A stretch of 33,147 bases of DNA. It comes from a virus. The notes beneath the pieces are model-generated. The model had not been told where the DNA came from, ran no database searches, and saw only the letters and a program-made list of their open reading frames with translations. How positions within the stretch are numbered: position 1 is the stretch's first letter; each line of letters begins with the position of its first letter. Both the position numbers and the translations under genes were made by a program. The stretch lies in the UHGV virus genome UHGV-0236124; one strand, 5' to 3'. Below, piece after piece: positions 8,225 to 9,530 of the stretch.

Positions 8225-9039
8225 GTATGGAGCTGATGGTTAAAGCGATGAAAATTCGAGTGGGTAATCCATTGCGAAAACTGGTTCTGATCAAGCTGGC
8301 TGATAATGCCAGCGATCAGGGTGAGTGCTGGCCCAGCTACCAGCATATTGCTGACCAGTGCGAGATTAGCAAACGTTCTGTGATGAATCATATTGCGGCC
8401 CTTTGTGATTCCGGGCTGGTAAAAAAAGTCACCCGGAAAGGTGAAAAAGGTAACTCAAGTAATATCTATCTCCTTCATCTTGATGGTGCAGGAGATTCAC
8501 TAGGGGGTAGTGCAAATAATTCACTATCTGGTGCAGCAAATTCACCAGGTAGTGCAGGAGTTGCACCAGGGGGTAGTGCAGGAGATTCACCCAGAACCAG
8601 TCACTCTTTTGAACCAGTCAAAGAACCAGTCAATGAACCAATAGCTGTTGGTGCATCAGTTGATGAGTCCGTGCGAGTTCGTTCAAACCGACCGGAATAC
8701 TCTCCGGAGTTTGAGCAGGCATGGCTGGCATATCCCAAACGTGCTGGTGGCAATTCAAAATCTGCAGCCTTCAAAGCCTGGAAAGCCCGTTTGAATGAGG
8801 GGGTAAACCCCGAAACCATGCTGGAAGGTGTGAAACGCTACGCGGGCTGGGTATCTGCGATGGGTAACAGCGGCACACAATTTGTGAAACAGGCTGTCAC
8901 GTTCTTTGGTCCGGATCGTCATTTCGAAGAATCCTGGGAAGTTCCTGCGGTATCTGCAGCTAGACGTGAGGACCCGTACTTCAAAGCCAGTTACGACAAC
9001 GTGGACTACAGCCAGATCCCGGCAGGATTCAGGGGGTGA
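8221..9039 (+). CDS. replication initiation protein (O-like, N-terminal HTH)
   Basis: N-terminus LRKLVLIKLADNASDQGECWPSYQHIADQCEISKRSVMNHIAALCDSGLV is a typical phage replication-initiator HTH; Gly/Ser/Ala-rich linker; internal DNA repeats. Confidence 0.7.
   Translation: MSMELMVKAMKIRVGNPLRKLVLIKLADNASDQGECWPSYQHIADQCEISKRSVMNHIAALCDSGLVKKVTRKGEKGNSSNIYLLHLDGAGDSLGGSANNSLSGAANSPGSAGVAPGGSAGDSPRTSHSFEPVKEPVNEPIAVGASVDESVRVRSNRPEYSPEFEQAWLAYPKRAGGNSKSAAFKAWKARLNEGVNPETMLEGVKRYAGWVSAMGNSGTQFVKQAVTFFGPDRHFEESWEVPAVSAARREDPYFKASYDNVDYSQIPAGFRG
8484..8640. repeat. iteron-like direct repeats inside the initiator gene (candidate origin)
   Basis: Repeated ggtagtgca and attcac units at roughly 22-bp spacing (8484-8591), then three copies of GAACCAGTCA (8595-8604, 8611-8620, 8623-8632). 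Confidence 0.45.
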
Positions 9040-9530
9040 TCATGAGTCTTTTGAATGAAGTTCAGAAATTCATTGAAGCCCATCCGGGGTGTACTTCCGG
9101 AGACATTGCGGATGCTTTTGCAGGTTACTCACGGCAGCGCGTTCTGCAGTCAGCAAGCAAGTTACGTCAGAGTGGGCGTGTGGCTCACCGTTGTGAAGGA
9201 GATACACGCAGACATTTCCCACGCCTGACTGAGAGAGCGCAGGAGCCGGAACCACAACCAGTTCGTGAAACCAGACCTGTGCGCAATTTCTATGTCGGCA
9301 CTAACGATCCCCGGGTGATTTTGTGCCTGACCCGCCAGGCGGAAGAACTGGAGTCCAGGGGCTTATACCGTCGTGCTGCAACGGTGTGGATGGCGGCATT
9401 CCGTGAAAGCTACTCCCAGCCAGAACGAAACAATTTTCTGGCGCGTCGTGAACGGTGTTTACGGAAAAGCAGTAAGCGGGCTGCATCAGGTGAAGAGTGG
9501 TATCTGTCAGGGAATTACGTGGGGGCTTAA
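9036..9530 (+). CDS. winged-helix protein with PerC-like C-terminal motif
   Basis: 164 aa; C-terminal AEELESRGLYRRAATVWMAAFRESY resembles the PerC/Pch-family signature as I recall it. Confidence 0.45.
   Translation: MIMSLLNEVQKFIEAHPGCTSGDIADAFAGYSRQRVLQSASKLRQSGRVAHRCEGDTRRHFPRLTERAQEPEPQPVRETRPVRNFYVGTNDPRVILCLTRQAEELESRGLYRRAATVWMAAFRESYSQPERNNFLARRERCLRKSSKRAASGEEWYLSGNYVGA

Follow-up and report, generated by a model that had tools for sequence, protein, structure and literature searches.

Described relatives of the gene considered here include PerC and the Pch proteins, which are carried on mobile elements. PerC, an 89-residue product of the EPEC plasmid pEAF/pMAR2, is encoded in the per operon together with the AraC-type protein PerA and is an activator of LEE1/ler. 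PchA, PchB and PchC of EHEC O157 are proteins of 104 residues, and the pch genes are cargo that prophages carry close to their lysis/tail region; neither set belongs to an early operon. With a ler::lacZ reporter, expression rises 5-8 fold with PchA, PchB and PchC, stays unchanged with PchD and changes less than 2-fold with PchE (PMC5931665). Fukui et al. found that Pch occupies DNA at many loci, that activation of LEE1 by Pch depends entirely on the repression exerted by H-NS, StpA and Hha, and that Pch reduces H-NS occupancy, in vivo as well as with reconstituted components (PMC4764244). The same work found no direct contact between Pch and H-NS (PMC4764244), and thus the mechanism is incompletely defined even in the model system.

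Membership in the PerC family does not predict LEE activation. The family also includes PchD, PchE and the PerC-like proteins of the PICIs EcCIEDL933, EcCICFT073 and EcCIMP1_025, all of which are encoded by phage-related elements and fail to activate LEE; the proteins from the PICIs of EDL933 and CFT073 leave LEE1 unchanged, and EcCIMP1_025 represses it (PMC11773190). PchE is the named protein closest to the one described below (32% identity in alignment A4), and its gene follows closely on those for primase and SSB, the replication genes of Sp7, a PICI-like element (locus L005, 6772-7044). A further group with a recurrent weak similarity is the ANR family (e.g. Aar; NF033650), whose members have a small helical fold, act purely through protein contacts and have no DNA-binding domain.

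Identity and distribution of yfdN

The window analysed here, a stretch of 33,147 nucleotides of viral DNA (UHGV virus genome UHGV-0236124), carries a PerC-family gene on its + strand that is yfdN by its sequence; in E. coli K-12, this PerC homologue belongs to the prophage CPS-53 (KpLE1). Its product is 100% identical to that of phage Ayreon and 97-99% identical to those of mEp460, SfV (orf40) and Stx2c- and Stx2a-converting phages. Across the C-terminal 74 residues, identity is 92-96% for the SfII and SfIV copies and 74% for sb43 of Salmonella phage ST64B. YfdN of CPS-53 and the copies in Ayreon, mEp460, SfV, SfII, SfIV, ST64B and the Stx2c phages represent the same gene, with the same length and, among the E. 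coli and Shigella copies, 95-100% amino acid identity. The similarity to Ayreon extends well beyond yfdN: positions 5000-17000 of the window are 99.1% identical to that phage.

Both the near-identity to annotated yfdN and the place of the gene after an O-like replication gene mark it as a yfdN orthologue, and the place after a replication gene is the same in all neighbourhoods examined (Ayreon, strain AR434, SfV and mEp460). In K-12 the two genes flanking yfdN, yfdO (an O-like replication gene) and yfdM (a methyltransferase gene), are degraded, whereas the phage of the window looks nearly intact.

A megablast search with positions 8900-9700 finds yfdN in 2688 of 5426 complete E. coli genomes, or about half, and in 2667 records the DNA identity is 95-100% and the annotation reads "yfdN: PerC family transcriptional regulator". 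The two-domain form of YfdN described below is very common: about half of the complete E. coli genomes carry it, and so do Stx2c phages. Both the gene and its assignment to the PerC family are already known from RefSeq and from the literature. Uhlich et al. deleted yfdN, "the K12 unique PerC homologue", to make a clean ler::lacZ reporter strain (PMC5931665). Since yfdN has been named, annotated and cited as the PerC homologue of K-12, its presence here carries little weight as a discovery. K-12 overexpression screens mention yfdN (a glycogen phenotype; a filamentation region) and give no insight into mechanism; the literature searched yielded no experiment that addresses the function of YfdN.

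Limits of the gene and its place in the early operon

Positions 9036-9530 (+) constitute a real open reading frame, which encodes 164 residues from the GTG at 9036, the start called by RefSeq, to the TAA stop at 9528-9530. The ATG at 9042, which gives a protein of 162 residues, is the likelier start because of the spacing of the Shine-Dalgarno sequence (AGGGGG at 9029-9034, 7 nt ahead of this ATG) and because the N-terminus that it yields, MSL..., is kept in relatives as low as 25% identity in alignment A1. The coding sequence is accordingly placed at 9042..9530 (+), on the basis of the open reading frame list, the Shine-Dalgarno sequence, the MSL conservation and the RefSeq annotation as yfdN of the PerC family.

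The gene is tightly packed between its neighbours. The stop codon of the upstream replication initiator gene (TGA, 9037-9039) lies inside GTGATCATG, so that the ATG at 9042 begins 2 nt past the TGA, whereas the GTG at 9036 overlaps it. At its other end, the stop of yfdN overlaps, in the sequence TAATG, the start of a gene whose product consists of a LexA DNA-binding domain alone (9530..9856, +; Pfam LexA_DNA_bind, 69 bits), which places that gene in the same operon. The early-right order runs cro-like, cII-like, ash-family, replication initiator, yfdN, LexA DNA-binding domain, rusA, KilA-N, DUF968 and Q. The cI-like repressor gene occupies 5602-6276 on the - strand and the cII-like gene 6599-7162; the ash-family gene (7159-7995) is followed by a small open reading frame and then by the initiator gene (8221..9039, +), whose product combines HTH_36 with a DnaD-like C-terminal part according to Pfam and PHROG. 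The DUF968/HNH gene follows the KilA-N gene, and next to it is the Q antiterminator gene (12041-12835). Transcribed with these genes in what is a standard lambdoid layout, yfdN is an accessory delayed-early gene of a lambdoid phage of the mEp460/Ayreon type.

A consensus scan of the + strand upstream of yfdN revealed no σ70-like site. Synthesis of YfdN most probably depends on the firing of the early-right promoter and is thus confined to infection or induction; in the stable lysogen the gene, which lies inside an early lytic operon and lacks its own promoter-like site, is probably silent.

Two neighbouring genes have features of their own. The LexA-type protein, of 108 residues, has no S24 peptidase domain and could be a non-cleavable binder of SOS boxes; its gene adjoins rusA in many related phages and in six of seven diverged loci. 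Compared with Ayreon, rusA of the window (9853-10243) has a 1-bp insertion near position 9934 that shifts its frame and leaves open reading frames at 9853-9990 and 9920-10243; this denotes either a pseudogene or a sequencing error.

A winged helix joined to a PerC-like core

The initial annotation had described a protein whose C-terminal part resembles the PerC/Pch signature and is fused to an N-terminal domain of winged-helix type. Both halves of this description are borne out. The PerC model of Pfam, PF06069, matches residues 98-149 of YfdN (window 9333-9488) with 35.1 bits, an E-value of 1.7e-8 and a gathering cut-off of 22.6, so that the HMM search upholds the family assignment rather than overturning it. 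The match spans only positions 5-56 of the 90 in the model, and thus the homology is limited to a core of about 50 residues. Authentic PerC of EPEC (plasmid pMAR2) aligns by BLASTP with 37% identity over 46 residues (98-143), and PHROG 1324, "transcriptional activator", covers YfdN over its full length (E 1e-77).

The PerC/ANR-like core (9309..9485, +) is delimited by the Pfam match, the AlphaFold2 model, the alignment with PerC/Pch and the sub-threshold ANR similarity discussed below. In the model, it consists of three helices, residues 90-105, 109-122 and 126-148, with pLDDT values of about 90. Alignment A4, which combines YfdN with PerC (pMAR2) and with PchA, PchD and PchE of O157 Sakai, reveals that YfdN residues A100, L103, G107, R111, A112, R136 and C139 are invariant across PerC/Pch; the peptide AEELESRGLYRRAATVWMAAFRESY that had suggested the resemblance corresponds to residues 100-124 (window 9339-9413). 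The core pattern that YfdN has in common with PerC and PchA/B/C can be written A..LE..G.YRRAA..W...R...R..C..K. By sequence search, no look-alike of the PerC core was found in the PDB, and Foldseek gave winged-helix matches only.

Beyond the core, the resemblance ends. The C-terminal third of PerC, PchA, PchD and PchE (K.AV..Y..MG..FR.Y) is absent from YfdN in alignment A4, as is the corresponding K.AV...Y..MG...FR.Y of PerC and PchA/B/C. In its place stands a YfdN-type tail, W-Y-L-S/A-G-x-Y-x-G, ...EEWYLSGNYVGA (9489..9527, +), which is defined by alignments A1 and A4 and has a low pLDDT; G157 within it is nearly invariant. PerC and PchA/B/C also differ from YfdN in having no winged helix. 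Thus, YfdN, with its 162 residues, winged helix and linker, falls outside the small single-domain class of PerC/PchABC (89-104 residues). PchD and PchE were considered as long YfdN-type proteins and ruled out, being short (89 and 90 residues), single-domain and equipped with a Pch-type C-terminus, unlike the two-domain YfdN.

The winged-helix domain comprises residues 3-60 (9048..9221, +) and is supported by the AlphaFold2 model, Foldseek, profile matches and the isoelectric point. In the model, which is built on a shallow alignment of 14 sequences, helices H1 (residues 3-13), H2 (19-25) and H3 (31-44) are followed by a β-hairpin wing (47-60), with pLDDT values of 80-90, and this arrangement can be superposed on solved winged-helix structures. 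Foldseek against the PDB returns MepR, ArsR, BlaI, SmtB and SlyA, with an rmsd of 1.7-2.6 Å over 56-68 columns and a probability of 1.0; the E-values are weak (0.08-0.3), as expected for such a short domain. A profile of the family alignment likewise matches, through its N-terminal 60-70 positions, PDB entries for BlaI (E 3e-4), MarR-family proteins (2e-3), MecI and a PapI-like protein. YfdN does not reach any Pfam winged-helix family at its cut-off. The domain has the fold of MarR, BlaI/MecI and ArsR-type winged helices; it differs from these proteins in having neither the dimerisation helix pair of MarR nor the C-terminal domain of BlaI.

Residues 1-62 have a pI of 9.8, with H3 and the wing being basic, and both domains of YfdN have a pI of about 10. 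DNA binding by the winged helix is predicted on these grounds; some winged helices bind proteins instead, and one of these, RPA32C, is also among the profile matches.

Between the two domains lies a flexible linker rich in Pro and Glu (residues 63-84; 9228..9293, +), with pLDDT values below 50 and gapped columns in alignment A1, where it is weakly conserved and variable in length. When 1.84 billion representative proteins were searched exhaustively, 97 relatives emerged, of which about 30 are full-length two-domain proteins of 138-165 residues with 25-48% identity. Alignment A1 consists of 29 proteins, including YfdN of the window, and all 29 match PF06069 with E <= 0.01, which indicates that the two-domain architecture defines a conserved subfamily rather than a fusion peculiar to this locus.

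Similarity of the core to the ANR family

The NCBIfam model ANR_neg_reg (NF033650) matches residues 96-142 of YfdN with 22.8 bits (E 6e-5) along positions 5-51 of its 54; the curated cut-off is 32 bits, and YfdN thus remains outside the family as curated. The same region of the model is matched, again below the threshold in every case, by PerC, PchA, PchD and PchE and by five of six other YfdN-type proteins. Sub-threshold matches are located at 9327-9467 in the window and at 18487-18753 in locus L002, 6772-7041 in L005, 43368-43679 in L006 and 3877-4143 in L007. This recurrence suggests that the PerC and ANR families are distant homologues.

Possible roles of YfdN

The reading favoured here, and held to be rather probable from the combined analysis, is that YfdN, made during lytic growth, would be tethered to DNA and modulate nucleoid or transcription complexes, and would not be a dedicated activator of ler/LEE. 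The winged helix would anchor the protein on DNA, and the PerC-like core would then remodel repressive complexes of nucleoproteins or regulators, much as Pch displaces H-NS, StpA and Hha at LEE1. In this way YfdN might, once the phage has infected or been induced, adjust transcription of phage genes and possibly of host genes. Because the C-terminal third of PerC/Pch is missing, the mechanism of Pch may not apply to YfdN. A more specific form of the proposal, which is put forward tentatively and is rather doubtful, is that the YfdN-type proteins are a distinct subfamily, always encoded directly after the initiator, and may be DNA-tethered anti-silencers that clear H-NS-type nucleoprotein from the early/ori region of the phage or, upon induction, reprogram H-NS-silenced genes of the host. 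If this were true, about half of E. coli strains would hold a latent, induction-dependent modulator of the nucleoid.

The main rival to a DNA-tethered regulator is an ANR-like mode of action, in which YfdN would work through protein contacts, binding an AraC-type activator or H-NS and inhibiting or retargeting it, with repression as the net outcome. The sub-threshold ANR match in the YfdN core, and the matches of PerC, PchA, PchD, PchE and most YfdN-type proteins to the same region of the model, are consistent with such a mode, as is the PICI protein EcCIMP1_025, a PerC-family repressor of LEE1 whose authors also point to ANR (PMC11773190). However, every one of these ANR scores is below the curated cut-off, and ANR proteins are small and single-domain, so that a fused winged helix lies outside the model that they provide; this alternative is considered unlikely. 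A still smaller probability is given to the idea that YfdN acts like PerC and PchABC, activating ler/LEE1 or other virulence genes of the host and linking prophage to virulence. The initial annotation had reasoned in this direction, from the activity of PerC/Pch homologues on ler to cross-talk between prophage and host. Its premise stands for PerC and PchA/B/C; it does not extend to PchD and PchE, which barely activate ler although they are full-length PerC-type proteins, nor to the PICI proteins, which have no effect or, in EcCIMP1_025, the opposite one. YfdN is a true member of the PerC family with a conserved core, and near-identical copies reside on Stx2c- and Stx2a-converting phages of O157. 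Yet it has only that core in common with the activators, its gene sits in a lytic early operon with no promoter of its own, and about 50% of E. coli genomes carry it, most of them without LEE. Because LEE-negative K-12 is among these, the conserved role of YfdN cannot be LEE-specific, and membership in the family does not support an activating effect on ler/LEE.

The position of yfdN bears on two further proposals, both of which are highly improbable. According to one, YfdN is a replication accessory protein and a partner of the upstream initiator, comparable to λ P. The gene indeed occupies the position of λ P, with its start directly past the initiator stop, and none of the genes in the module was recognised as encoding a helicase loader. 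In addition, the pair of genes is kept in all seven diverged prophages whose upstream DNA is intact, at identities as low as 25%, and the mosaic initiators all retain a common C-terminal tail, ...DYSQIPxGFRG. Part of the conservation of this tail may, however, reflect an embedded ribosome-binding site, and YfdN resembles no helicase loader. Moreover, the initiator of phage cdtI is identical in 269 of 272 aligned residues, apart from a 22-residue repeat expansion, and is followed 50 bp on by dam with no yfdN, while mEp390 proceeds from the initiator tail straight to the LexA-type gene, again without yfdN. Since cdtI and mEp390 hold the initiator or its tail without yfdN, an obligate role as replication partner is rejected; yfdN is dispensable for the replication module and behaves as an optional gene of the nin region. 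According to the other proposal, to which equally little credence is given, YfdN acts like a C protein, as the regulator of a neighbouring phage gene for a DNA methyltransferase. The next gene encodes a methyltransferase, of varying family, in five of five distant prophages; in SfV, dam adjoins orf40 and its promoter signals are annotated within orf40; and gene calls with Dam fused to PerC exist. On the other hand, in the window and in Ayreon yfdN is followed by the LexA-type gene and the methyltransferase gene lies 4.6 kb away, past Q; cdtI has dam without yfdN; and the adjacency may merely be conserved gene order. The link between yfdN and methyltransferase genes is thus frequent and not obligatory, as it is absent in the window. 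The reading of YfdN as a DNA-tethered regulator made during lytic growth is preferred to all of these alternatives.

Initiators, methyltransferases and PerC-family genes at related loci

The diverged loci were found by a profile search of genome contigs with a 10-sequence alignment. They comprise seven prophages of Shigella, Citrobacter, Enterobacter and Kosakonia, with identities of 25-65%, in each of which the homologue follows the initiator gene with a 4-nt overlap. The initiator tail ...(V)DYSQIPxGFRG, encoded at 8950-9036 in the window, is present upstream of yfdN homologues in loci L009, L012 and L014-L018; the initiators that share it differ in their N-terminal and central domains. The tail occurs in 57 phage records, some of them from phages without yfdN. 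It may be a docking motif for a host factor or, in part, an embedded ribosome-binding site.

The initiator gene of the window also contains iteron-like tandem repeats with a period of 21-24 at 8506-8591 (and 8611-8640), which are probably the phage origin. At this repeat region, cdtI carries one extra unit of 22 residues.

The methyltransferases encoded after the distant yfdN homologues belong to several families (Dam, D12, a C5+D12 fusion and MT-A70), and the genes are located at 6420-7643 in L014, 6429-7307 in L015, 6429-8252 in L016, 1543-3726 in L017 and 6426-7085 in L018. The gene next to yfdN in K-12 is likewise a methyltransferase gene, yfdM. In the window, the methyltransferase gene occupies 14119-15171, after Q.

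Genes of the PerC family are spread across very different mobile elements. Besides the PICI-like element that encodes PchE (L005, 6772-7044), one is present in a virulent N4-like Shigella phage and another lies beside a divergent helix-turn-helix gene on an IncF plasmid; further coordinates for genes of this set are 4016-4258 in L021 and 5007-5315 in L020.
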